DNA from: a virus
Taxonomy: Duplodnaviria; Caudoviricetes
Reading direction: 5' to 3' (one strand)
Length of the DNA: 64,000 nucleotides
Virus record (IMG/VR): IMGVR_UViG_3300033073_000410
Span: 51,485-115,484 of that record
This document shows positions 584 to 55,752 of this stretch, in pieces. The notes below the pieces were generated by a model. It worked only from the letters and a program-made list of their open reading frames with translations. It had not been told where the DNA came from and searched no databases. Each line of letters starts with the position of its first letter. Positions within the stretch are counted from its first letter, which is position 1. Position numbers and translations under genes: made by a program.

Positions 584-1312
584 TTATGTAGGTTCTGGAC
601 GCTTTTCTAATTTATAGCGTTTACCCAGCATGTCGCCGTACAATAGTGCTAGATAGCTTAATGTTGATTCTTCATTGTAGTCAATGAAGTAGTGACTGGA
701 CATGTAATTGCCCCACCAATAATTAATTACAGTTTTTTCTCTAACCCACTTGGACATTGCAGGGCTAGAACTAAGGGTTTTCTTATTTTTATCTAAGAAT
801 TTCTTAAGTTCTTCCTTGAACCCGTCAGGAGCACGTTTGCTCTTTAAGTAAACCCTATAGTTAAACTTGGGCTTGTTTACAAAGTGCTTTATACCAACTA
901 AATTACTTGTGATAACTTCGGTCATGTCAGTTACAACATTAACATCGTTAGTATATTGTGACTTAATATCCTGCAAATACTGTAGGTCGTTACTGAAAAC
1001 AGCAATTGTGTCACCCTCGCTACGCAACCCAATGTTCTTGTCCTTCTTAGCCGCGGCCCTGAAAGTAATTAACCTTTCAATTGGTACTAAGTTTTCAGTG
1101 ATTTCTTTCTTTGCATCGTCACGTAACTTACTGTACAATTTACTCTTCCCGGCTAAACGTAACTTCAATGTTTCGATATCACTGTACCAGGCATAACGAA
1201 CACCCGGTATAGATAAACGCAACCTATATAGGTACTTACTGTAATATGAACTGTCTCGGTAATCGTGAAAATCGATACCAGGAACATCACTGACTGACTT
1301 CAATAATCCCAT
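584..1312 (-). CDS. Hypothetical protein, 242 aa
   Basis: ORF overlapping the end of clpA. Confidence 0.7.
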   Translation of the reverse strand: MGLLKSVSDVPGIDFHDYRDSSYYSKYLYRLRLSIPGVRYAWYSDIETLKLRLAGKSKLYSKLRDDAKKEITENLVPIERLITFRAAAKKDKNIGLRSEGDTIAVFSNDLQYLQDIKSQYTNDVNVVTDMTEVITSNLVGIKHFVNKPKFNYRVYLKSKRAPDGFKEELKKFLDKNKKTLSSSPAMSKWVREKTVINYWWGNYMSSHYFIDYNEESTLSYLALLYGDMLGKRYKLEKRPEPT

Positions 1313-3566
1313 CTTCTCCTACTTTCGCTACTAGTTTCTGTGATACCTCGAACTCGATGGTATCGTTGTTTAATACCGCGTTGATTGTACTATTTTTAAT
1401 ACGTTCAAACAAGATTTTCTTAGATAGAGGCACCCGAATCAATTCGTCAATCTTACGTGACAATGGACGAGCACCCATCTTACTATCATAGCCCTTTTCA
1501 GCTAGATATTCAACAACTGGTTCACTCAAGTTCAACTGAATCTGATATGTGTCATTCAATTGTTTACGCAAGTCCTCTGTAAACTTAAGTACAATCTTCT
1601 TGATAGCCAATGTATCGAGTTTATCAAACTTACAGACCAAGTCGATACGGTTTCTGAATTCTGGCTTAAAGAACTCTTTCAACGCTTTGTCATCTTCACC
1701 TGTACGTTCTTGTGAACCGAAACCAATCACTGACTTCTCACTATCACTAGAACCCAAGTTACTGGTCATGATAATGATACAGTTCTTAGCATTGACTTCT
1801 TTACCGTTCGTGCCGGTCACTCGACCTTCATCAAGTAATTGCAAGAACACGTTAAAGATATCTGGGTGAGCCTTTTCAACTTCGTCAAACAACAAGATAG
1901 CATGAGGGTTCTTGCTCAAGTCGTTGATTAAGCGTCCGCCACCTAAGTTGCCTTCGCCGAAGCCTACGTATCCGGGAGGTGCGCCGAGCAATGCTGACAC
2001 GTTGAACTTTTCACTGTACTCTGACATGTCGTATTTCAACAAGGGCATGTCTAAGTTCTTACTTAACAAACGTGCAAGTTCAGTCTTACCCGTACCAGTT
2101 GGGCCTAAGAACAAGAAACTTGCCATTGGCTTAGTCTCTGGGCTGATGCCAGCAAAACTAACATATAAGCGATCCAATACAGCATCAACAGTCTTTTCTT
2201 GACCATACAACTTATGCTTCACGTTATCGGACAATGTCAACACACGTGCGTTACTGTCATTACTCAACTTGTCAGCAGGGACTTTAGCCATGCGTTCAAC
2301 TTGTTCGTAAATCAATTCTTTTGTAATCTTAGCACCACTGTTGTTCAATACTCTCTGTTTAGCACAAGCCGCATCAATCAAGTCAATTGACTTGTCTGGG
2401 TTCTTACGGTCATGCATGTAACGGGTAGCACTATCTACTGCCGCAACAATAGCGTCATCTTCGATTTCAACATCATGGAAGTCATTCAAGCGTTTGCTCA
2501 AGCCACCAAGAATACGAATAGTTGATTCACGATTTGGTTCGTCAACTGATACACGATAGAAGCGGCGCATCAACGCACGATCCTTCTCGAAACTCTCATA
2601 GTACTCTTCCCAAGTTGTACTAGCGATAACTTTCAATGTACCCTTAGTGATAGCAGGCTTAATCATATTAGCGAAGTCAACACTGCCGTTACTACTGTTG
2701 CCACCAGCACCCTTCATAGTGTGTGCTTCGTCAATGAAAAGAATAGCTTTCTTCTTGGCACTCAATGCTTCGAGTACTGACTTAATCTTTTCTTCAAAGT
2801 CACCGCGATACTTACTACCAGCAAGCAAACTACCGATTTCAAGACTATAAAGAGTATGACCCTTCAAGAAGTCTGGGCAATCGCCGTCAACAATCTTTTG
2901 TGCTAGACCCTCTGCGATAGCTGTCTTACCTACACCAGGATCACCCACCATTAACACGTTACTTTTGAATCGTTTAGCTAATACGTTAACAATCTCGTTG
3001 ACCTCAGTTGAACGACCAATCATTGGTTCTAGTTTACCAGTTTGTGCTAGTTCACTCAAATTGATAGTGTATTCTTCTAGGATTTCATTAGCTTGTGATT
3101 CTGTCAATGCAACGATACTATCATTGTGCTTATAGTTCTTTTGCCAGAAGGGAACAAACTGATTCTTTTCAACGCCATACTTCAATAAAAAGTAATGTGC
3201 ATGGCTATTTGTTTCGTTTAAAATACTAAGATACAAGTCAATGCTTGTAACATTTTTACGACCGGTAAACAATACTTGTGTTACTGCTCGGTTCATTACA
3301 CGCTCTAAACTATGTGTTTTGCGTGGCTGAACATCTTGTCCTTGACTGATATCTACCTTGATTGATTGTAGGTTATCGATATAACTGGTGATTTCCTTAA
3401 TCATCATGTCAGTATCAGCACCAAATTGGTCAAGACATTTCTTAAACGGGGTGAATGTTACTAGTGCTAGTAACAAGTGCTCAATAGTGCAATATTCATG
3501 GTTGCGCTCTTTAGCGAATCCAACTGATGATTCAATGATGGATTCGATTTCTGGTGAATTAGTCAC
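1287..3566 (-). CDS. clpA: ClpA-like AAA+ unfoldase
   Basis: Clp N-domain (EHLLLAL), two Walker A motifs (GDPGVGKT, GPTGTGKT), Walker B (FIDEAH, LFDEVEK), GAPPGYVG, IGF loop, GARPL; no ClpB middle domain. Confidence 0.92.
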   Translation of the reverse strand: MTNSPEIESIIESSVGFAKERNHEYCTIEHLLLALVTFTPFKKCLDQFGADTDMMIKEITSYIDNLQSIKVDISQGQDVQPRKTHSLERVMNRAVTQVLFTGRKNVTSIDLYLSILNETNSHAHYFLLKYGVEKNQFVPFWQKNYKHNDSIVALTESQANEILEEYTINLSELAQTGKLEPMIGRSTEVNEIVNVLAKRFKSNVLMVGDPGVGKTAIAEGLAQKIVDGDCPDFLKGHTLYSLEIGSLLAGSKYRGDFEEKIKSVLEALSAKKKAILFIDEAHTMKGAGGNSSNGSVDFANMIKPAITKGTLKVIASTTWEEYYESFEKDRALMRRFYRVSVDEPNRESTIRILGGLSKRLNDFHDVEIEDDAIVAAVDSATRYMHDRKNPDKSIDLIDAACAKQRVLNNSGAKITKELIYEQVERMAKVPADKLSNDSNARVLTLSDNVKHKLYGQEKTVDAVLDRLYVSFAGISPETKPMASFLFLGPTGTGKTELARLLSKNLDMPLLKYDMSEYSEKFNVSALLGAPPGYVGFGEGNLGGGRLINDLSKNPHAILLFDEVEKAHPDIFNVFLQLLDEGRVTGTNGKEVNAKNCIIIMTSNLGSSDSEKSVIGFGSQERTGEDDKALKEFFKPEFRNRIDLVCKFDKLDTLAIKKIVLKFTEDLRKQLNDTYQIQLNLSEPVVEYLAEKGYDSKMGARPLSRKIDELIRVPLSKKILFERIKNSTINAVLNNDTIEFEVSQKLVAKVGEDGIIEVSQ

Positions 3567-6184: not shown

Positions 6185-6354
6185 AGTTTAGTATTTATCA
6201 TTCTTTGAACGATAACGAGCAGAAAGAAAAGTTCGGGGGTAGCCTAATATTTATGCTAATTCTGTGTGAAAAAAGTACGCTACTATAGGCTATTCATTTG
6301 ACCTTAAATAAACTTGAGTGTTATGAGAACTCACGCTCGACAAAGGAGATAATT

Positions 6355-7134
6355 TTGAGCAAACGAAAGACAGGCGCTTTACGCAATCAGGAACAAGACA
6401 CACGCTACGCACACACAAAAAAACAAGAACAAACATTCTATACGAAAGAATCTAAAACAATCAATTTCGACCAAGCACGAATCAAACTGAATACTAAACC
6501 CATTCAATTAGTGCCCAAGTCCGTCAATCAAGAAAAGTACATTCTCGCACTACTTAATGAACACGTTGATATCGTTGTCGTAGGTGGACCTGCGGGAACA
6601 GGTAAAACTTATCTAGCTATGCAAGCCGCTATCAAGGCATTGAAAGCAGGTGAAGTAGACCGTATTATCTTGACTAGACCTGCAATTGGTGTTGAAGATG
6701 AAAAGCATGGGTTCTTGCCAGGAGATATCAATCAAAAGATGGAACCGTGGACTAGACCTCTGCTAGACGTTTTACGTGAGTATTACACAGCCCGTGAAAT
6801 CGCCCACATGCTAGAAGAACAGATAGTGGAAATTGCACCCCTAGCATTCTGTCGAGGTCGGAACTTTAAGCACAGCTACGTTATACTTGATGAAGCTCAA
6901 AACGCAACCCCTGGTCAACTCAAGATGATTATGACTAGAATCGGTATCGGCAGTAAGATTGTAATTACTGGCGACATTGAACAAGCCGATAGAAAAACAG
7001 CCGACAATGGGCTACTAGACTTACAAAATCGATTGGGGAAGGGGGTGATTCCAGGGTTGCAACTATGTAACTTTGAACTAAAAGATGTTCAACGACATAG
7101 GATTATCGAGCACGTACTTAAATTGTATGGATAA
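6355..7134 (+). CDS. phoH: PhoH-family ATPase (likely TTG start at 6355)
   Basis: GPAGTGKT, LTRP, GFLPG, RGR, LDEAQN, TGDIEQAD, VQRH; AAGGAG RBS before TTG. Confidence 0.93.
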   Translation: MSKRKTGALRNQEQDTRYAHTKKQEQTFYTKESKTINFDQARIKLNTKPIQLVPKSVNQEKYILALLNEHVDIVVVGGPAGTGKTYLAMQAAIKALKAGEVDRIILTRPAIGVEDEKHGFLPGDINQKMEPWTRPLLDVLREYYTAREIAHMLEEQIVEIAPLAFCRGRNFKHSYVILDEAQNATPGQLKMIMTRIGIGSKIVITGDIEQADRKTADNGLLDLQNRLGKGVIPGLQLCNFELKDVQRHRIIEHVLKLYG

Positions 7135-47787: not shown

Positions 47788-48342
47788 CAAATTCATATGA
47801 ACGACAACAAGATTTGCGTAGGCGACACTATGACTTTTCTTAAACTGATATCCATCAGAACCCTTTTCCCAGACAGATTCAGAAACCGTTTTCCATGTGG
47901 AGCCAATCAAGTGGTTCTTCGCTGGGCGGATCGCCGCAAGGAACATCGCCAATCTAGGGATAGAGTTAACAGGTTCAGGCATCTTCTGAAGGCTATCATA
48001 GTGGTTAGCTAAGTGAATTAGTTGTTCGACTATCTTTCTGTCCTTCAACATATTCCAATCAGGTTCATCCATTAACTCAATCAAGTGACGTTCATCACGT
48101 ACTTTCTCATACACGTGAACGTTCAACATATCTAACTTAACATATCCGCGTTCTTCTGCTACAGTATAATCCAAGTTAGCAATGTCATTGTCACTGTCAT
48201 ACGGAATCTCAGTAACATAGATACCAGTCGCATGTTTGCGTACTGGATGCACTCTACGCATTGCCGCAGGTATATACTTGATATGTTGTAAGATATCATC
48301 ACGGTTACCGAAGTCAATATCTATGTCTGATTGAAATTTCAT
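47758..48342 (-). CDS. dnaE: DnaE-like fragment carrying the catalytic aspartates and a trimmed fingers region
   Basis: SDIDIDF, KHATGIYV, GYVKLDMLN, LAAIRPA, GYQFKKSHSVAYA. Confidence 0.87.
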   Translation of the reverse strand: MKFQSDIDIDFGNRDDILQHIKYIPAAMRRVHPVRKHATGIYVTEIPYDSDNDIANLDYTVAEERGYVKLDMLNVHVYEKVRDERHLIELMDEPDWNMLKDRKIVEQLIHLANHYDSLQKMPEPVNSIPRLAMFLAAIRPAKNHLIGSTWKTVSESVWEKGSDGYQFKKSHSVAYANLVVVHMNLLRESFNKGN

Positions 48343-48890
48343 GGGTTTACTAATTCTGCTTTCATCAATTTCTTGTATGCTTGTTGAACAACGATTGCTT
48401 GACGTTCAGCATCTTCTACAGCCTTGTGACTTGTTGTGTGTCCACCGTCTTTGAGTTTAACGTTACAAATGTCATAGATTGTACGTGTATCTCTAATGTT
48501 CCAGAAGTTCCAAGGTGCTAACTGATTGTGGTCTCTCCAAGCTGACTCCATTACAACAACGTCAAAACTTGCACCGTTACTCCATACTTTACCATTGTTA
48601 TACTTCCAGCACCACTTATACAATGTATCCATACAGTCTTTGTATGATACTCTATCTCTGTCGCCCAGTGCTTCTTCTTGTGCAGCCTCTGATTGTTCAC
48701 TCCACCAACGCAATGTATCTGGATTGATGGAACGATTAAAGATATCAGTTTGTTCTTCAATCGTGGGGCGCAATTCTATTTTATCTATAATGCCATTGCC
48801 CTTAGGGTCAAACAATACTGCACCTATTGTCAATATCACACAGTTTGGAGTCGTGTCCAAACTTTCAATGTCAATCATTATGTCAGCCAT
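48339..48890 (-). CDS. DEDDh 3'-5' exonuclease
   Basis: MIDIES, NGASFD, RDTRT, HKAVEDA. Confidence 0.88.
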   Translation of the reverse strand: MADIMIDIESLDTTPNCVILTIGAVLFDPKGNGIIDKIELRPTIEEQTDIFNRSINPDTLRWWSEQSEAAQEEALGDRDRVSYKDCMDTLYKWCWKYNNGKVWSNGASFDVVVMESAWRDHNQLAPWNFWNIRDTRTIYDICNVKLKDGGHTTSHKAVEDAERQAIVVQQAYKKLMKAELVNP

Positions 48891-49395: not shown

Positions 49396-49676
49396 TAGTT
49401 TTTCCACATTTCATAAGTGAACTTCTCTTTCTCACCCCAGACTTCAATGTACAACAATCCACCTGCCATCCAGAAGTCCCACATTCTACCACGCTCACCT
49501 AGGTTTCTACGACACCATTTGATATATTCAGTTAAGTCTATCTTTTGATAATTGAGGTCGATAGTATGTAAGATACGTCCATTACGACTAGCATCATAAC
49601 TAGACTTATCCGCCACATTGTAAGTAGGTAGCGGAGCAAATGTTCCTGTGCTTCTTCCTATTCCTGATATTGCCAT
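49395..49676 (-). CDS. Small array protein, divergent LRW-family member
   Basis: WCRRNLG...W motif. Confidence 0.65.
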   Translation of the reverse strand: MAISGIGRSTGTFAPLPTYNVADKSSYDASRNGRILHTIDLNYQKIDLTEYIKWCRRNLGERGRMWDFWMAGGLLYIEVWGEKEKFTYEMWKN

Positions 49677-49894
49677 TATAGATACCTTAAACTAAACCAT
49701 GTTGCTAGTTCTTCTTTGTAGAAGATGAATATAGTGTATCTATTATACACGGCTTCGTATGTTGTTTCACTATATTTGGGCTTATGATATTCAAAATCAT
49801 AATCTATACCCTGAACATACCCACTCTTTCTTATTTCCCTAACGATGTCCATTACTTCGTTGGGCATCTTATCCAAAAGTTTAATTTCAATCAT
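49676..49894 (-). CDS. LRW-family small protein
   Basis: Ends FYKEELATWFSLRYL. Confidence 0.7.
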   Translation of the reverse strand: MIEIKLLDKMPNEVMDIVREIRKSGYVQGIDYDFEYHKPKYSETTYEAVYNRYTIFIFYKEELATWFSLRYL

Positions 49895-50142
49895 TGCGGG
49901 AATTGTAATAAGAACCAACTAGCGTAGCTGTCATCTTCAAAAGTAAGTTTCCAAACTCTGTAATGACTAGTATACTTCTTGCCATCTTCACCATCGACAA
50001 TTGATTGTTCACTGTGCAACTTAGCCATCCATCCTTCACCACCGACACTATTATGAATGTAATGAAGTCTAGGGCCTACGTTTTTAGCAAGCCAATCTTC
50101 TGCTCGTGAACTCAAACCACTCTTAAGTGTTATAGTTATCAT
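49891..50142 (-). CDS. LRW-family small protein
   Basis: WLAKNVG; ends FEDDSYASWFLLQFPQ. Confidence 0.7.
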   Translation of the reverse strand: MITITLKSGLSSRAEDWLAKNVGPRLHYIHNSVGGEGWMAKLHSEQSIVDGEDGKKYTSHYRVWKLTFEDDSYASWFLLQFPQ

Positions 50143-50408
50143 GTCCACCTCAATAGAAACGCTGTAAGGAACTCATCCTTACATAGCATGATTTCTCCAA
50201 ATTCACAATTGTCAACCCAGTAACTATCTTCAATATCTTCTCTATAGCCACTCTTACCAAAAGTTTCACAGCACCAATTTTGAATCTCGTTCGCATCAAC
50301 CTCACCTTTACCTTTCCAGCTAATAGTAGTTATGTTTCGTTCACTGAATGGATAATGCTCTACCCAATATTGAAAGGACCCTAATTGTTTAACTTGTTTC
50401 ATTGCCAT
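50139..50408 (-). CDS. LRW-family small protein
   Basis: WCCETFG; ends FLTAFLLRWT. Confidence 0.7.
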   Translation of the reverse strand: MAMKQVKQLGSFQYWVEHYPFSERNITTISWKGKGEVDANEIQNWCCETFGKSGYREDIEDSYWVDNCEFGEIMLCKDEFLTAFLLRWT

Positions 50409-50650
50409 CTTAGTATAAACCATTCCATATCTTTTTTCTCACGAAAGTAAAATCTGCTATTGTTAATGTACCATCTTCCGCCGGGTGAAAATACTCCATC
50501 TTTCGGTAGTGGTCCAAATGATTGTAAGCACCAGTCTTCTAACTCTTTCCATTCTTCTACAAACCAAGTACTAACGTGTGCTTTGAATATAGGTTCGGCT
50601 GAGTAGTACCGTGCCCCATAGATTCGTCCTTCGTCAAATCTTAACTCCAT
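50399..50650 (-). CDS. LRW-family small protein
   Basis: WCLQSFG; ends FREKKDMEWFILRWQ. Confidence 0.75.
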   Translation of the reverse strand: MELRFDEGRIYGARYYSAEPIFKAHVSTWFVEEWKELEDWCLQSFGPLPKDGVFSPGGRWYINNSRFYFREKKDMEWFILRWQ

Positions 50651-50901
50651 CGTAGAATAAACCATTCTGCATCTTGTTTGTTCTCAAATAGATAATCGCT
50701 ACCTAATCTGCGATAACTACCTTTACATGTTCCGGCTAACCAAATGTTAATATCAACAGCTTGTGTATTGTTTTTGAAATGATATCCGACGGGGATCCAA
50801 CCGGAGTTAACTAACATGTTAGATATGATACCTTCATCCATTTCTCTGGCTATCTCATTAGCCAAAATATCATATATTTCTTGTTCTACATCTTGTTTCA
50901 T
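50641..50901 (-). CDS. LRW-family small protein
   Basis: Ends FENKQDAEWFILRWS. Confidence 0.75.
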   Translation of the reverse strand: MKQDVEQEIYDILANEIAREMDEGIISNMLVNSGWIPVGYHFKNNTQAVDINIWLAGTCKGSYRRLGSDYLFENKQDAEWFILRWS

Positions 50902-50903
50902 AT

Positions 50904-51086
50904 TTACGACCACCTCAACATATACATCATATAAACATCTTCATTCATCCACAGATTTTCTAATCCATAGTCGTATTCTTCGCCCCAGCGCCCGCCATTG
51001 ACTCCGAAGTTCATAACTAACCACAGTTTAACTTCTGCTTTTAACTTCCAAGGCCAACGCTCAGTTACAATTCCATATTGTTTCAC
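50904..51086 (-). CDS. LRW-family small protein
   Basis: WLVMNFG; ends YMMYMLRWS. Confidence 0.7.
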   Translation of the reverse strand: MKQYGIVTERWPWKLKAEVKLWLVMNFGVNGGRWGEEYDYGLENLWMNEDVYMMYMLRWS

Positions 51087-51304
51087 ACCCACCTCAGTTC
51101 ACACATTAGTGCATGTTTTTCTTCTTCAAACCAAATGTCAAGTGATTCACCGGAAGAACGATACCTAATCTCAAAAAGGTCTTCGTTGTATTCTACTAGT
51201 TGTTCAACCCACTCTCTTATCACTAACACTTCGTTAATCCGTGATTCTATATCGAACAAGTTTGTTGTTCGTAGTTTGACATTAACTTTGTAATTCACGA
51301 CCAT
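51083..51304 (-). CDS. LRW-family small protein
   Basis: Ends WFEEEKHALMCELRWV. Confidence 0.7.
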   Translation of the reverse strand: MVVNYKVNVKLRTTNLFDIESRINEVLVIREWVEQLVEYNEDLFEIRYRSSGESLDIWFEEEKHALMCELRWV

Positions 51305-51525
51305 TTCAATATAAACATCATCAAATCTGATTCACGGTCAATTCTAACCTCGCCGTACTTGATATCATCAACCCAACGAACATCTGCTGTATCATTTCTA
51401 TAGCCGGGCTCACCGAATGTTTGATAACACCAGGTTCTAATCTCAGCCTGTACAAGTATTTCTTGCATAGGGAATGCCACAGTAGTGTAGTTCTTGTATG
51501 TTGGTTTATAGTAAATCAGTTTCAT
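51295..51525 (-). CDS. LRW-family small protein
   Basis: WCYQTFG; ends DLMMFILKWS. Confidence 0.7.
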   Translation of the reverse strand: MKLIYYKPTYKNYTTVAFPMQEILVQAEIRTWCYQTFGEPGYRNDTADVRWVDDIKYGEVRIDRESDLMMFILKWS

Positions 51526-51791
51526 TCCCACCTCAACAAGAACCAAGAATACTTCTTATCATCTACAATTTTGTAGTCAGTCATCTTCCAGGAAGTTGCA
51601 TAAGTTTGTTGTATTTGATATTGTATAAGTTCAATATCAACCCCATGCTCTGTTAGCATGTGATGTAGGAAGGAATCATTCCTAGGAATACCTGTAACTA
51701 CTCTTGCTTCACCTGGTAGTGGAAGCTCTTTTCCAATTGCTTCTTTCCAATACTTATATATGACTTTCTCAAATTTTTTGATATCCTGCAT
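51522..51791 (-). CDS. LRW-family small protein
   Basis: Ends IVDDKKYSWFLLRWE. Confidence 0.7.
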   Translation of the reverse strand: MQDIKKFEKVIYKYWKEAIGKELPLPGEARVVTGIPRNDSFLHHMLTEHGVDIELIQYQIQQTYATSWKMTDYKIVDDKKYSWFLLRWE

Positions 51792-51793
51792 AA

Positions 51794-52237
51794 TTATGAC
51801 CACCTCAACATAAACATCATGTAATCTCTTTCATCTTTGAAGGCAAAGTAAACAAAATCACTGCCACCGATATCATTGAACCAATAATCTTCATGCAAGT
51901 CATTGTCGATTCCTATACCAGTTTGCTTATGCACTCGGTGAATGTCTGCACGCCATTTGAATCTAATGTTCCAATCACACCATGAACGCATTTCATTGTA
52001 GCCAAACACTAAGCCACCGGGACCGTAGTCACCTAGACACTGGTACGCATAGTGACTAGGATTTTCACAACGATAGACATGGGTATATCCACTGTAGAAG
52101 TCACTTACTTTATCAGCATAACGGCAAACATCAGTATCACGATTGTGCCGATATGTTGCCCAATTGGCATAACCACTCTTTGCTAACTTTCTGTTAGCAA
52201 GATACTGGCGCCAACGTGCTTTAAGTCGTAGATTCAT
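51794..52237 (-). CDS. LRW-family protein, long form (147 aa)
   Basis: Ends FAFKDERDYMMFMLRWS. Confidence 0.75.
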   Translation of the reverse strand: MNLRLKARWRQYLANRKLAKSGYANWATYRHNRDTDVCRYADKVSDFYSGYTHVYRCENPSHYAYQCLGDYGPGGLVFGYNEMRSWCDWNIRFKWRADIHRVHKQTGIGIDNDLHEDYWFNDIGGSDFVYFAFKDERDYMMFMLRWS

Positions 52238-53409
52238 TTCAAATATCCTATGTCAGTGCGATACACGTACTCACCCATTTTCTGTGTTTTTAAATATGCG
52301 TATATTTTATCACTGGCTTGACTAATTGTAAATCCCTTTGATGTAAAAACATATGAACTACTGTACCCAGGTCTAGTGTAAGTTATATCTTTGGGTACAT
52401 TAATGAATTCGGGCTTCTCACTATTTGGGTCATACTTATAGTCTTTGGGTGATACTACCACTGTAACTGCTTTGTCATCAGAGAATGTTATTTCGGGTAG
52501 TACTAAGCCCATAGTAGCAGAGTAAAGTAATGTGCCTAACTCATTCGTAACAGTAGATATTATACTTAATGATTCAGGGCAACCAAATCTAGTATTGATT
52601 TCTAACACTAACGGAACGTTGTCTTTATCGAAGATGATACCCAAGTAAAGTATACCGACGTAAGGGTCGCCTTGTTGCGACAAGTAGTTTAGTATCTTAT
52701 CTACATACTGGTCAACGATATAGAATCGGTCAGTGATACTGTATGAGCCTACACCTTCTGTGTTAAAACCCTTGTCATCGTTCTCAAACTTTTTATAATC
52801 TCTCGCAGAGCCTAAGTACTTCCAATTAGTATCGTTACAAATCGCATGGTAAGATATCTCATGTTTGCTGTCGATAAATTCATCAATGATGAATGTCTCC
52901 ACTGGAGAATCTTTCATCCTATCATACTCGTCTAGTTGATTAGTATCAGTAACTATAACTGTTTGCAAGCCCTCGTTCCAGTATTTGTTATACTTTAGAA
53001 CAAAAGGTCGTTGAATGATAAAGAAGCATTCTATTAGTTCTTCTTTACTGAGAACTTGATGCTTGGGTGTAGGTATGTTAAGTTCGTTTAACATATCCTT
53101 TGTTTTACTCTTATCCCATTCTAACAATGCGTTATTATGTGATGGCATAAAGCAAGGCGTGTCTTTAATCGCTTCACGTAATTCTTCTGACAACTGATAC
53201 TCAAGTTGAGTAGGAATAATCAAATCAAAGTTGAGTTTCTTTATGCATCCAATCAAGTAGTCAAGTGATTCTTTGGCTGGTAGAGGTATATAGTTGTCCT
53301 CTACCTGGTAGGTAATGTTAGCCCCATAGTGATAGACTGTGTTAGACTTAGCCAACAATTTAGATATGAAGTGTGCTGAGGGTATTCTACCTATTACCAG
53401 AATTTTCAT
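52234..53409 (-). CDS. Divergent phosphoribosylamine-glycine ligase (PurD/GARS)-like ATP-grasp enzyme
   Basis: MKILVIG, LEWDK..TK, RDYKK...GFNTEGVGSYS, YVGILYLG, LEINTRFGCPE, YRTDIG. Confidence 0.8.
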   Translation of the reverse strand: MKILVIGRIPSAHFISKLLAKSNTVYHYGANITYQVEDNYIPLPAKESLDYLIGCIKKLNFDLIIPTQLEYQLSEELREAIKDTPCFMPSHNNALLEWDKSKTKDMLNELNIPTPKHQVLSKEELIECFFIIQRPFVLKYNKYWNEGLQTVIVTDTNQLDEYDRMKDSPVETFIIDEFIDSKHEISYHAICNDTNWKYLGSARDYKKFENDDKGFNTEGVGSYSITDRFYIVDQYVDKILNYLSQQGDPYVGILYLGIIFDKDNVPLVLEINTRFGCPESLSIISTVTNELGTLLYSATMGLVLPEITFSDDKAVTVVVSPKDYKYDPNSEKPEFINVPKDITYTRPGYSSSYVFTSKGFTISQASDKIYAYLKTQKMGEYVYRTDIGYLK

Positions 53410-53678
53410 AGGTACTTGAGTACATATAGCATGTACTTACCTTCATCAGTGATTGTATATTCTCTCATCACATTACCGTGAATATCGAACAGAATTTTTA
53501 TGCCGCATTCTTTTTCTATCCACTTGTCAAAGCTATCTTCTTTGCCAGTGGTAGTTGGTTCATAGTACCCGGTATATTGTTTCTGATATAAGTCTTTCAT
53601 CTTTCGCATGTTGCGCCAAAAGACCCATTGCTTATTAGTAACCACGTTATGATACTCGATAAATTCGTTAGTCTGCAT
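53406..53678 (-). CDS. LRW-family small protein
   Basis: Ends ITDEGKYMLYVLKYL. Confidence 0.7.
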   Translation of the reverse strand: MQTNEFIEYHNVVTNKQWVFWRNMRKMKDLYQKQYTGYYEPTTTGKEDSFDKWIEKECGIKILFDIHGNVMREYTITDEGKYMLYVLKYL

Positions 53679-53967
53679 GTGTCAATAAATCAAATGCGGT
53701 GGCATATTGAACTTCAGGCTCCATGTGGAAGCCGGTACCCCATACTACCCAAACTCTGCGCTTGTATGCTTTAGTCCAGAACAACGGTACGCCGCTGACA
53801 CTTCTGCGAGGCCACATGACGAATGTTTCAGTCCACGGATAGCAATCTGCACCGTCCGTTATAATTTTTGTTATATTCATCATTGATCCTGGAATAGGTT
53901 GTGTTAGTTGTACCATCTTGTTTAGTTCTATGTTGAAGTTTATACTTCTGCCCCAGACTATCTTCAT
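53668..53967 (-). CDS. Hypothetical protein
   Basis: ORF, ATGA-coupled. Confidence 0.65.
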   Translation of the reverse strand: MKIVWGRSINFNIELNKMVQLTQPIPGSMMNITKIITDGADCYPWTETFVMWPRRSVSGVPLFWTKAYKRRVWVVWGTGFHMEPEVQYATAFDLLTHAD

Positions 53968-54401
53968 CGCTGTAATATAGCCCACATGTCAAGTTTATGT
54001 GTGGCTTCTTTTGCTTTTTCTTCTGCTTTGTGTTGATATTCTCTTGCTACTCTAACATTATACTTTTCTGTTTCAATCTGTTCATTCAATTCTTGAATCA
54101 ACTCAGCCACAGTTCTCGCCTTAAGACTCTTAACTTCTTCTCTTTCTTGCTCTAACAAAAACTGAGTATGTTTAAGTTCATCCTCAAGATGTAAGATATA
54201 ATGTCCTGGATGATACCGATTACAGTTTACAACACTTACAAAATCACAATAAGTATCATCCATACCTGCATTTAACAAGTCATCCATGATTGCGCCTTTT
54301 GTGCGTTGCATAACTGTGGCTATTTTAACTCGTACTGGATCAGTATCGTATCTAATAACATAGTCCATTAGTTCATCGTCTGTTAGGTGATTTAAGTTCA
54401 T
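53964..54401 (-). CDS. Hypothetical coiled-coil protein
   Basis: ORF, ATGA-coupled. Confidence 0.65.
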   Translation of the reverse strand: MNLNHLTDDELMDYVIRYDTDPVRVKIATVMQRTKGAIMDDLLNAGMDDTYCDFVSVVNCNRYHPGHYILHLEDELKHTQFLLEQEREEVKSLKARTVAELIQELNEQIETEKYNVRVAREYQHKAEEKAKEATHKLDMWAILQR

Positions 54402-54628
54402 AACCACATCAATCCAAAATATGTTGCGTCACTTTGTTTTTGAAACCTGAAGGTTGCACTTTTATAGTCTTTTGATTCATGCATCCAAAAGCCCTTGCAC
54501 TTACGTTTACAAAACTTCTTTGCCTTCTCAATCTTCATATCAAATTCAAAATATCTTTCGGAAAGATTGTGAAGGGTAATTTCATGCTCTGTTTTACGTT
54601 TATGTTGCCTACGTTGTTGTGAATTCAT
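54398..54628 (-). CDS. LRW-family small protein
   Basis: Ends FRFQKQSDATYFGLMWL. Confidence 0.7.
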   Translation of the reverse strand: MNSQQRRQHKRKTEHEITLHNLSERYFEFDMKIEKAKKFCKRKCKGFWMHESKDYKSATFRFQKQSDATYFGLMWL

Positions 54629-54843
54629 TAGGAGTACCTCAATACAAACATCATATATAGTTTTTCATCATGCCATTTGACATTCATTATGCTATTGGGT
54701 TGTTTAGATTTTGCAATCGTTGCGTTATACTTCTTTAGTGTATCTTCAATGATTTCTTCAGGATCATGTGACTTGATAAAATTGTTGAAGTAACAATTTC
54801 TTTTGTCTGGAACTGGGTAACGAAAATATTGTTTCTTTATCAT
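54628..54843 (-). CDS. LRW-family small protein
   Basis: Ends WHDEKLYMMFVLRYS. Confidence 0.7.
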   Translation of the reverse strand: MIKKQYFRYPVPDKRNCYFNNFIKSHDPEEIIEDTLKKYNATIAKSKQPNSIMNVKWHDEKLYMMFVLRYS

Positions 54844-55082
54844 TATAGCCACCTCAAGCTAAATTGAATAGCATCTTTTTCATCATAGAAATAGAAGTCC
54901 ATGTAATCAGTCAATGGATGCCACGAGAATCGTGTACCAGGCATACCATACTGTTCGATAGCCCAAGCACAGATTTCATTCCATGCTTCATTGTTGTTAC
55001 GACCATCACGCCAGTCAAGGCGTACTTTAGTACCCCGCCATTTTGAGGGTGTCTTGGATTCGTTGTTTAGTATCTGTGTCAC
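54843..55082 (-). CDS. LRW-family small protein (start uncertain)
   Basis: WAIEQYG; ends FYFYDEKDAIQFSLRWL. Confidence 0.7.
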   Translation of the reverse strand: MTQILNNESKTPSKWRGTKVRLDWRDGRNNNEAWNEICAWAIEQYGMPGTRFSWHPLTDYMDFYFYDEKDAIQFSLRWL

Positions 55083-55752
55083 GGTGAAACTTCAATGCCC
55101 ATTGTTCTGGATTTATATAATCAGTAATCATTGTAACTTGACCTGGATTTAATGTCTCTAGAAAACGGATACCGCTGTCGCTACAATACAACATCCATGG
55201 TGATATTTTACCCGTTGTTATGGCATGACATATTCGATTACTGTTCCCATAGCGCAAAACATCATTGGGCTGGATATTTTCGTTTTCACTTTGGGTAATA
55301 CAGTACTCAACGCTACGATGAATCGCATCAAAAGGATCCTCTACCCGTAAGTACTCTATAAGAAAACGGGTATACGTAGAGTCTGTATTCCAAACGTCTA
55401 TCTTAATTTGGTTCTTGAGTAACCATTCAACATACCTACTGACATTAATCACATTTGCATCAGCACAGTATGAACCGAACTTAGCAAATGCAGTATAGTA
55501 TGGACTACGAATGAATTCTTCTACTGTTTTGTTCTTTGTCTTGCTCATTGAGTTCTTCGTATAGAACTGCAACCAAGACTGAAACGCTAACCGATTACCT
55601 TTGTTATCTTTGTTTAGCCAACGTGATTTGGTCTCACATATATGAGATATTATAGTTTTCTCTCTGGAGAATTCACGATTACAAAATTCACAACTAAACT
55701 TTAGTGGTTTAGTTGTTTCCGTGTTCTCGCTCGTATTCTTTGATATCTTCAT
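55027..55752 (-). CDS. Hypothetical protein with an N-terminal C2HC zinc finger
   Basis: FSCEFCNREF...HIC. Confidence 0.75.
   Translation of the reverse strand: MKISKNTSENTETTKPLKFSCEFCNREFSREKTIISHICETKSRWLNKDNKGNRLAFQSWLQFYTKNSMSKTKNKTVEEFIRSPYYTAFAKFGSYCADANVINVSRYVEWLLKNQIKIDVWNTDSTYTRFLIEYLRVEDPFDAIHRSVEYCITQSENENIQPNDVLRYGNSNRICHAITTGKISPWMLYCSDSGIRFLETLNPGQVTMITDYINPEQWALKFHRDTDTKQRIQDTLKMAGY

Follow-up and report, generated by a model that had tools for sequence, protein, structure and literature searches.

The C-terminal Leu-Arg-Trp tail of a phage small-protein family as a probable translation signal for the next gene in an array of overlapping genes

The window analysed here is a 64,000-nucleotide stretch of DNA, the final 64 kb of the 115,484-bp IMG/VR viral contig IMGVR_UViG_3300033073_000410. 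Its minus strand carries an array of 17 genes, all of which abut or overlap with no intergenic space, and 14 of them encode related small proteins of 60-147 amino acids whose tails read [F/W/Y/M]-x-L-[R/K/Q/M]-[W/Y/F]-x-stop. The codons that spell Leu-Arg-Trp in this tail appear to be used a second time, as the translation signal of the following gene. The feature is real and statistically very strong, and we conclude from the codon counts below that the synonymous choice at the motif Arg appears to be governed by the initiation of the next gene. The whole is probably best described as translational coupling combined with short-homology recombination in a paralogue array of 14 diverged members, forming a hyperplastic accessory-gene array within a block of replication genes.

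Codon choice and spacing at the gene junctions

Leu-Arg-Trp is written YTG AGG TGG at six gene ends on the minus strand (50145-50153, 50910-50918, 51089-51097, 51528-51536, 51800-51808 and 54849-54857), and the variants TTG AGG TAC and TTA AGG TAT end genes at 54634-54642 and 49682-49690, respectively. The string YTGAGGTGG occurs seven times in the window as compared with 0.66 expected; six of the seven matches are at gene ends, and none of 100 shuffled sequences reached seven. AGG encodes the motif Arg in 8 of 10 cases in the window, whereas it accounts for 81 of the 1488 Arg codons (5.4%) of the 115-kb contig (binomial P ~3e-9). At three other gene ends AGA TGG (50405), CGA TGG (50647) and AAA TGG (51301) each contain an ATG in the frame of the next open reading frame (ORF). 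A preliminary description of this DNA had listed these spellings with their positions and had considered AGG uncommon elsewhere; positions and codons were found to be correct, and the contig-wide count bears out the rarity.

The genes of the array, in which membership of the family was assigned with a hidden Markov model (HMM), and the two conserved genes used as anchors on its sides are as follows.

55027..55752 (-): upstream anchor, a conserved 241-amino-acid gene with 421 relatives in viral contigs, C2H2-type according to the annotation of one isolate
49676..55082 (-): whole array, 14 family genes and 3 unrelated genes (ORF list, junctions and family HMM, the last for all 14 members)
54843..55082 (-): family gene N, 79 amino acids, GTG start, tail FSLRWL; junction TTG AGG TGG CTA TAATG
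54628..54843 (-): family gene M, tail FVLRYS; junction TTG AGG TAC TCC TAATG
54398..54628 (-): family gene L, tail FGLMWL, Met replacing Arg; ATGA overlap
53964..54407 (-): unrelated gene, 147 amino acids, tail AILQR, no Pfam match; ATGA overlap with the next gene
53668..53967 (-): unrelated gene, ~99 amino acids (ORF list, junctions and Pfam scan)
53406..53678 (-): family gene K, tail YVLKYL, Lys written AAG; ATGA overlap (junctions and family HMM)
52234..53409 (-): PurD-like ATP-grasp enzyme, 391 amino acids (Pfam GARS_A, E 2e-21); ATGA overlap
51794..52237 (-): family gene J, 147 amino acids, tail FMLRWS; junction TTG AGG TGG TCA TAA tt ATG
51522..51791 (-): family gene I, tail FLLRWE; junction TTG AGG TGG GAATGA
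51295..51525 (-): family gene H, 76 amino acids, tail FILKWS; the next gene has an in-frame ATG within AAA TGG
51083..51304 (-): family gene G, tail CELRWV; junction CTG AGG TGG GTGTGA, GTGA overlap
50904..51086 (-): family gene F, ~60 amino acids, tail YMLRWS; junction TTG AGG TGG TCG TAA at ATG
50641..50901 (-): family gene E, tail FILRWS; CGA TGG holds the sole start codon for the next gene
50399..50650 (-): family gene D, tail FILRWQ; the next gene has two in-frame ATGs within AGA TGG CAATGA
50139..50402 (-): family gene C, tail FLLRWT; junction TTG AGG TGG ACATGA
49891..50142 (-): family gene B, tail FLLQFPQ, Arg absent; overlap ATGA, not preceded by a Shine-Dalgarno (SD) sequence
49676..49894 (-): family gene A, tail FSLRYL; junction TTA AGG TAT CTA TAATG; orthologues 68-78% identical
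48339..48890 (-): downstream anchor, Rv2179c-like 3'-5' exonuclease (Pfam PF16473, E 4.7e-34)

Gene N overlaps the 241-amino-acid anchor gene by 56 nt (55027-55082). The overlap looks real, because the N-terminus of the predicted protein is conserved in the database homologues P0024 and P0025. In the related contig L002 the source gene calls leave a gap (6224-6402) where the orthologue of gene N sits. Outside the window, at the opposite end of the contig, there is a mini-array of three further family members (contig G000, 2145-3065); two of them have TTG AGG TGG or TTC CAATGA junctions (two more AGG tails), and the last one, with a gap behind it, uses AAG TAC and lacks an SD.

The comparison set consisted of 81 related viral loci, 80 of them found via the anchor gene of 241 amino acids and one via a protein look-up, in which the HMM identified 458 family members, the window's own 14 included. 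The motif Arg in these loci (n=341) was AGG in 199 cases (58%), AGA in 105, CGA in 24, CGC in 11, CGG in 2 and CGT in none. This is far from the background usage of the relatives, where AGG makes up 6-8% of Arg codons and CGT, the commonest Arg codon, 27-35%. Internal Arg-Trp dipeptides of the same set had AGG in 27 of 505 cases (5%) and CGT in 203 (40%); AGG was used in 6.6% of internal Leu-Arg pairs and for 15% of the Arg residues in the tails of other genes. Codon-pair context was considered as the cause of the bias and ruled out, since AGG stays at background level in internal Arg-Trp and Leu-Arg pairs. If the junctions are grouped into 125 semi-independent units (family cluster times downstream neighbour), AGG is the leading codon in 83 units and CGT in none, and within orthologous clusters the codon state co-varies with the type of junction. 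The enrichment of AGG over genome usage is thus both strong and specific for this position. No tRNA gene was found in the 115-kb fragment, so it provides no phage tRNA for AGG.

The AGG TGG spelling creates GAGGTG, which matches six consecutive bases of the canonical SD consensus. In the window the next ATG either overlaps the stop codon (ATGA or TAATG) or comes 2 nt after it, and GAGG ends 5 nt (ATGA) or 8 nt (TAATG) before this ATG (range 5-8 nt). The same geometry is found in the relatives, where 95% of the AGG junctions have a Leu codon ending in G. The ATG of the next ORF is located at +8 in 119 of 181 AGG TGG junctions and at +11 in 28, and for all AGG junctions a start lies between +6 and +16 in 187 of 199 cases. 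When the ATG is at +8, 98% of the AGG junctions are ATGA overlaps: the residue after Trp can be any amino acid, but the third base of its codon is A and forms the first base of ATGA.

The joints of the array therefore combine the overlaps of translationally coupled gene pairs (ATGA, TAATG or gaps of a few nucleotides) with an intragenic SD, since the upstream gene contains GAGGTG near its 3' end, at a working distance from the next start. Across the contig, neighbouring genes most often overlap by 4 or 1 nt (spacings of -4 and -1), therefore coupled starts are the general style of this genome and not a speciality of the array; the special part is that a protein motif supplies the signal. Intergenic starts of this phage have canonical SDs of the AGGA, GGAG and AAGGAG type.

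A second design was recognised in the motif Arg codons other than AGG. Of these, 129 of 142 (91%) end in A, therefore NNA TGG contains an ATG in the downstream frame. This ATG opens an ORF of at least 40 amino acids in 127 of 156 cases, and no other ATG start lies near the junction in 41, typically those with a TAA stop, where ATGA cannot form. In the window, the only possible start of gene D is the ATG within the CGA TGG of gene E. The preliminary description had proposed that each gene end carries the translation signal of the next gene and that NNA TGG creates the next start. The enriched AGG codon and the spacing of the ATG agree with the first proposal, which at the level of sequence seems well founded; the codons ending in A, the complete avoidance of CGT and the sole-ATG junctions speak for the second.

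The commonest design, YTG AGG TGG NNA TGA, encodes Leu-Arg-Trp-X-stop and at the same time spells GAGGTG in front of an ATG overlapping the stop codon. In the mechanism that we envisage, ribosomes finishing one gene would start the next, either by SD-assisted coupling or by termination-reinitiation. In the alternative design an Arg or Lys codon ending in A places the next ATG within NNA TGG. The array would then probably be read as a single long polycistronic message.

Variation of the array and the position of indels

Both anchors are present in 48 of the loci, and between them there are 3-24 genes occupying 656-7856 bp. Gene content and order differ among these arrays (for example clusters 5-4-11-6-10 in one and 5-30-6-11-17-4-10-12 in another), as would be expected if, as had been proposed, units were gained, lost or shuffled by microhomology at the motif. 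The tail motif is a property of the arrays: it was found in 479 of 711 array genes and in 9 of 964 genes outside arrays.

Indels were examined in alignments of close pairs, and those of at least 60 nt with flanks at least 80% identical were taken as clean (n=13). Seven or eight of the 13 are bounded by in-phase direct repeats of 10-38 nt that include the motif or the overlap. The clearest example is the pair L061/L064 (98% identical), in which a 302-nt gene was lost within homologous tails of ~38 nt leaving a short allele whose tail resembles a mosaic of both parental ones. Motif-containing repeats flank the indels of the pairs L071/L081 (TTGAGnTGGnCATGAG), L053/L063 (TGGTCATGAG) and L018/L024 (ATTGAGATGGCAAT); two repeat-flanked events were seen in L067/L073, and in L057/L064 the repeat ATGGCnATnA is found around a 1.5-kb radical-SAM gene. 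Adjacent homologues, a gene number varying within the limits given above and the L061/L064 breakpoints in homologous tails make up the picture of a paralogue array subject to unequal recombination. We propose that the shared unit ends of 10-40 nt could allow short-homology recombination between tails to remove, add or reorder whole units, each surviving unit keeping its initiation signal afterwards. Unrelated cargo genes sit in the same chain, an ATP-grasp gene in the window and a radical-SAM gene in relatives.

Some arrays are far more uniform than that of the window. These are L076, L077 and L079, with 12 copies of the exact 13-nt junction GAGGTGGNNATGA, of which the window has only two exact copies. 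Among the database proteins P0026, P0028, P0047 and P0117, some have two tandem domains, like fused neighbours, and one has a 21-residue duplication of the tail. The two-domain proteins and the duplicated tail look like footprints of recombination at junctions or of stop codon loss.

Several points weigh against the combined description. The loci belong to related phages, and the counts obtained from them are not independent events. Gene starts were set by simple ORF rules, and SDs were judged against the canonical consensus. At 86 of the NNA TGG junctions there is a second ATG at +8, and which of the two is the true start is ambiguous. About five or six of the 13 clean indels are at gene borders with no visible repeat, and exact identity of tails within the window extends over just 9-15 nt. 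The divergence of cassettes also runs parallel to that of the phage backbone; between divergent phages, a single comparison of 1820 was outlying (97.5% identity in the cassette vs 83.7% in the backbone). Finally, whole-gene indels are probably the only ones to survive, and this alone puts breakpoints near junctions.

This last point leads to an alternative in which indels arise anywhere and only those sparing whole genes and their starts persist, so that breakpoints at the motif would reflect survivorship and recombination would not favour the junction. Since the genes abut, any whole-gene indel must end a few bases from a tail, and the repeat-less border indels of L071/L079 (224 nt), L007/L011 and L036/L052, as well as the L030/L035 deletion, which begins inside a gene, are of the kind that such a process would leave. 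However, seven or eight of the 13 clean indels have both ends in the same phase within a shared repeat, and the mosaic-like tail in L061/L064 is what recombination between the repeats should yield; we regard this alternative as unlikely. A role of the tails in recombination is suggested by the pattern of indels, which fits recombination between repeated tails, and we put it no more strongly because selection for intact genes also places breakpoints near junctions. With respect to the original proposal, about half of the clean indels do lie inside the motif or junction and motif-containing repeats were found, whereas some indels have no repeat at all, and the homology, at 10 to ~38 nt, is often longer than the 9 nt of the motif.

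The protein family and other explanations of its tail

The family is large and has no name. No named family scored above threshold in Pfam or PHROGs for ten window members, and Pfam scans of ten database homologues revealed nothing but Gp23 fragments, located in N-terminal extensions. A search of 1.84 billion proteins with a profile of 93 members gave 4604 cluster representatives at E<=1e-3, all of them unnamed, and the domain extends to the C-terminus in nearly all matches listed. In the AlphaFold2 model of gene H (pLDDT, the predicted local distance difference test score, 83) the order of elements is strand-strand-helix-strand-strand-helix with the motif in the last helix; the family domain is predicted to comprise ~60-75 amino acids in this order, its closing helix reading D-A-x-x-F-x-L-R-W. 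Foldseek gave no match in the PDB at E<=1e-3. The best VIA-align match was DCoH / pterin-4a-carbinolamine dehydratase, which has the same order of strands and helices (Z 6.1, root-mean-square deviation 2.8 A over 64 residues); its Z is below the typical chance level of 7-8 for this tool, and we take the match as more probably a common arrangement than a sign of homology. The BFVD matches were uncharacterised proteins of uncultured phages only, and those in the ESM Atlas unnamed viral clusters only. From the location of the genes, an early accessory role of the proteins may be guessed.

The N-terminus of gene E resembles a fragment of the Gp23 major capsid protein (PF07068 positions 169-214, E 4.5e-5, below cut-off; phrog_138). 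Gp23-like N-terminal stretches are present also in P0027, P0087 and P0123, that of P0123 at positions 6-43 (E 7.6e-11).

No array was found at the syntenic locus of Escherichia phage ph0011 or Pseudomonas phage PA5oct, and no family member was found in ph0011. PA5oct has three distant matches to the family; the two examined (L085, PA5oct 181548-182187) end in ...FKLQFGL and ...FGLIHK, lack the LRW spelling and do not follow each other in a head-to-tail chain. The uncultured clade may therefore have acquired the dual-coded tail as a derived trait. The tail is under protein-level constraint as well, to judge from the conservative replacements (Lys, Tyr and Phe) and from the PA5oct members without the LRW spelling.

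These observations bear on an alternative with the direction of cause reversed, according to which Leu-Arg-Trp is kept mainly because the nucleotides must spell an SD, the protein having no need of it. TTG AGG TGG is almost the sole in-frame spelling of GAGGTG here, and the freedom of the residue after Trp, of which just the third base is fixed, would fit such a view. On the other hand, conservative replacements that destroy the SD are common (Lys in 62 cases, Tyr or Phe in 67), the motif closes an amphipathic helix that is confidently predicted, the distant PA5oct members keep F-x-L-x-F/H without SD spelling or array, and NNA TGG junctions retain Arg-Trp without any SD. Taking these together, we consider the reversed direction quite improbable.

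The AGG TGG spelling could also have been inherited, or homogenised among the tails by gene conversion, without having any role in translation. The genes are paralogues, and some of their tails share up to 15 identical bases in the window and up to ~38 nt between clusters 6 and 11 in the relatives. However, the bodies of the genes are only 13-36% identical, so synonymous sites should be saturated, and the codon state switches with the junction type within orthologous clusters. It is also difficult to reconcile mere inheritance with the absence of CGT at 341 motif positions when it is common at internal Arg-Trp, with the sharp peak of spacing to the ATG at 5 nt, or with the last gene of the mini-array, where a gap follows and AAG TAC is used without an SD. 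This explanation appears very improbable.

An SD-like element before a stop codon is the signal used in prfB frameshifting, and the two-domain members P0028, P0047 and P0117 could be taken for neighbours fused through frameshifting or read-through, but there is no conserved slippery sequence, as any NNA codon may stand before the stop. Moreover, each downstream ORF is provided with an ATG in the canonical position, and the database fusions are single open frames. This leaves the explanation with next to no probability.

Cargo, locus and relation to known systems

The coupling and recombination proposed above would extend to genes that do not belong to the family. The PurD-like ATP-grasp gene of the window has GARS_A only, without GARS_N or GARS_C, and is a singleton cluster, unique to this phage among the 48 arrays compared. 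Its tail, TTG AAA TGA (Y-L-K-stop), is like the Lys variant of the motif with the Trp codon become a stop. In relatives, a 506-amino-acid radical-SAM/B12-binding enzyme was noticed inside the array (L056:7262-8782 (+); also in L057, L058 and L037). The radical-SAM gene ends in ...KKLKWQ-stop in three loci, and its two paralogues in L037 end in ...KKLAI and ...KKLAFNGFST; the KKLKWQ end, as opposed to those of the paralogues, suggests that the tail was grafted.

The contig, rated 33% complete by CheckV, has nearly all of its genes on the minus strand and encodes the T4-type proteins tail sheath, gp15-like protein, UvsW, DnaB-like helicase and primase-like protein (Pfam). Homologues of the upstream anchor, 30-33% identical, are present in jumbo myoviruses such as PA5oct, Asteriusvirus, SCTP-2 and Phosso (tblastn), and a related contig of 359,563 bp was rated complete. 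Taking into account these T4-type genes, the anchor homologues and the size of the complete related contig, the phage can be classified by sequence as an uncultured, Rak2/PA5oct-like jumbo T4-like myovirus. Phage records gave no match to the region by megablast, and none to one family member by tblastn. Elsewhere in the window (1287-3566 (-)) there is a gene for a full-length ClpB/Hsp104-like double AAA+ chaperone (Clp_N, AAA, AAA_lid_9, AAA_2 and ClpB_D2-small).

The preliminary description had likened the array to an integron without an integrase. It shares with integron arrays that small, variable genes without promoters of their own follow one another in the same orientation, and that relatives differ in how many there are and in what order; unlike integrons, it has no integrase, no attC hairpins and no site-specific recombination, and most of its units are paralogues. 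No integrase was found in Pfam scans of the flanking genes and 10 family genes (the other four were covered by the family HMM only), the neighbours being a helicase, an exonuclease, a primase and the ATP-grasp enzyme, and attC sites of ~60-140 bp are not possible where genes abut or overlap. A single comparison in 1820 suggests recent transfer. Cassette identity tracks backbone identity (mean difference -1.3 points), therefore cassette turnover looks mainly intragenomic or old, and exchange between phages rare or old. The likeness to integrons was therefore abandoned.

The kinds of arrangement that are combined here, coupled overlapping genes and repeat-mediated shuffling in hyperplastic regions of phages, are already known. 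In most groups of prokaryotes, the majority of overlapping downstream genes have been reported to be preceded by an intragenic SD, whose removal usually lowers reinitiation in the termination-reinitiation process (Huber et al. 2019, PMC6728339). Like those pairs, the array genes are co-directed, have 4- or 1-nt overlaps and carry the SD in the 3' end of the upstream gene. They differ in that the SD sits in a peptide motif of a whole paralogue family, with a 15-nt module at each joint, that a variant of the motif supplies the start codon and that the codon bias is extreme (AGG 58% vs 6%; CGT 0 of 341). In the synthetic bicistronic design (BCD; bioRxiv 10.1101/2023.02.09.527918) the SD likewise lies inside the end of a translated upstream frame and the stop overlaps the start, and the translating ribosome keeps the site open for any following gene; BCD is engineered and uses a single leader peptide, whereas the array is natural, is chained many times and has real proteins as its upstream frames.

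The nearest published concept is the promoter-early stem-loop (PeSL) cassette. PeSLs are intergenic promoter-terminator repeats of ~100 bp in T4-type hyperplastic regions, and were proposed to mediate deletion, insertion and shuffling of the ORFs that they flank (Arbiol et al. 2010, PMC2839356; Comeau et al. 2014, PMC4122927). In both cases a short expression signal is repeated among small non-essential genes of T4-like phages and is a proposed recombination site that also supplies every shuffled gene with a signal for its expression, and indels bounded by a repeated element, as in PeSL cassettes, were found here with the tail motif as that element (seven or eight of the 13 clean indels). Whereas the PeSL acts in transcription, the signal of the tail would act in translation, is within coding sequence, measures 10-40 nt and involves no intergenic DNA. 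PeSL-like elements were not enriched in the array: there were 47 promoter-like sites as compared with 39.9 in shuffled sequence (standard deviation 6.0), and 8 terminator-like sites as compared with 5.0 (standard deviation 2.0).

A further step, which we offer tentatively as something less than an even chance, is that the L-R-W tail serves as a portable adaptor for two purposes, being a bicistronic linker of natural origin and a recombination site, and that it has been grafted onto unrelated enzymes, so allowing the clade to plug arbitrary genes into a coupled chain. If true, this would be the translation-level counterpart of PeSL cassettes and a general route of accessory-gene turnover in jumbo phages.

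The array provides an unusually clear natural example of three constraints acting on a single short sequence, as the end of a helix, as the ribosome binding site or start of the next gene and as a site of rearrangement. Standard gene callers can miss or mis-start genes in such arrays, and the family to which they belong, with thousands of sequence clusters, is still without a name. The junction is a natural template for context-independent polycistronic expression. For the phages themselves, it shows how a long chain of fast-evolving accessory genes may be kept expressed without intergenic DNA, and it provides a concrete, testable mechanism by which the hyperplastic regions of giant phages may turn over their genes.

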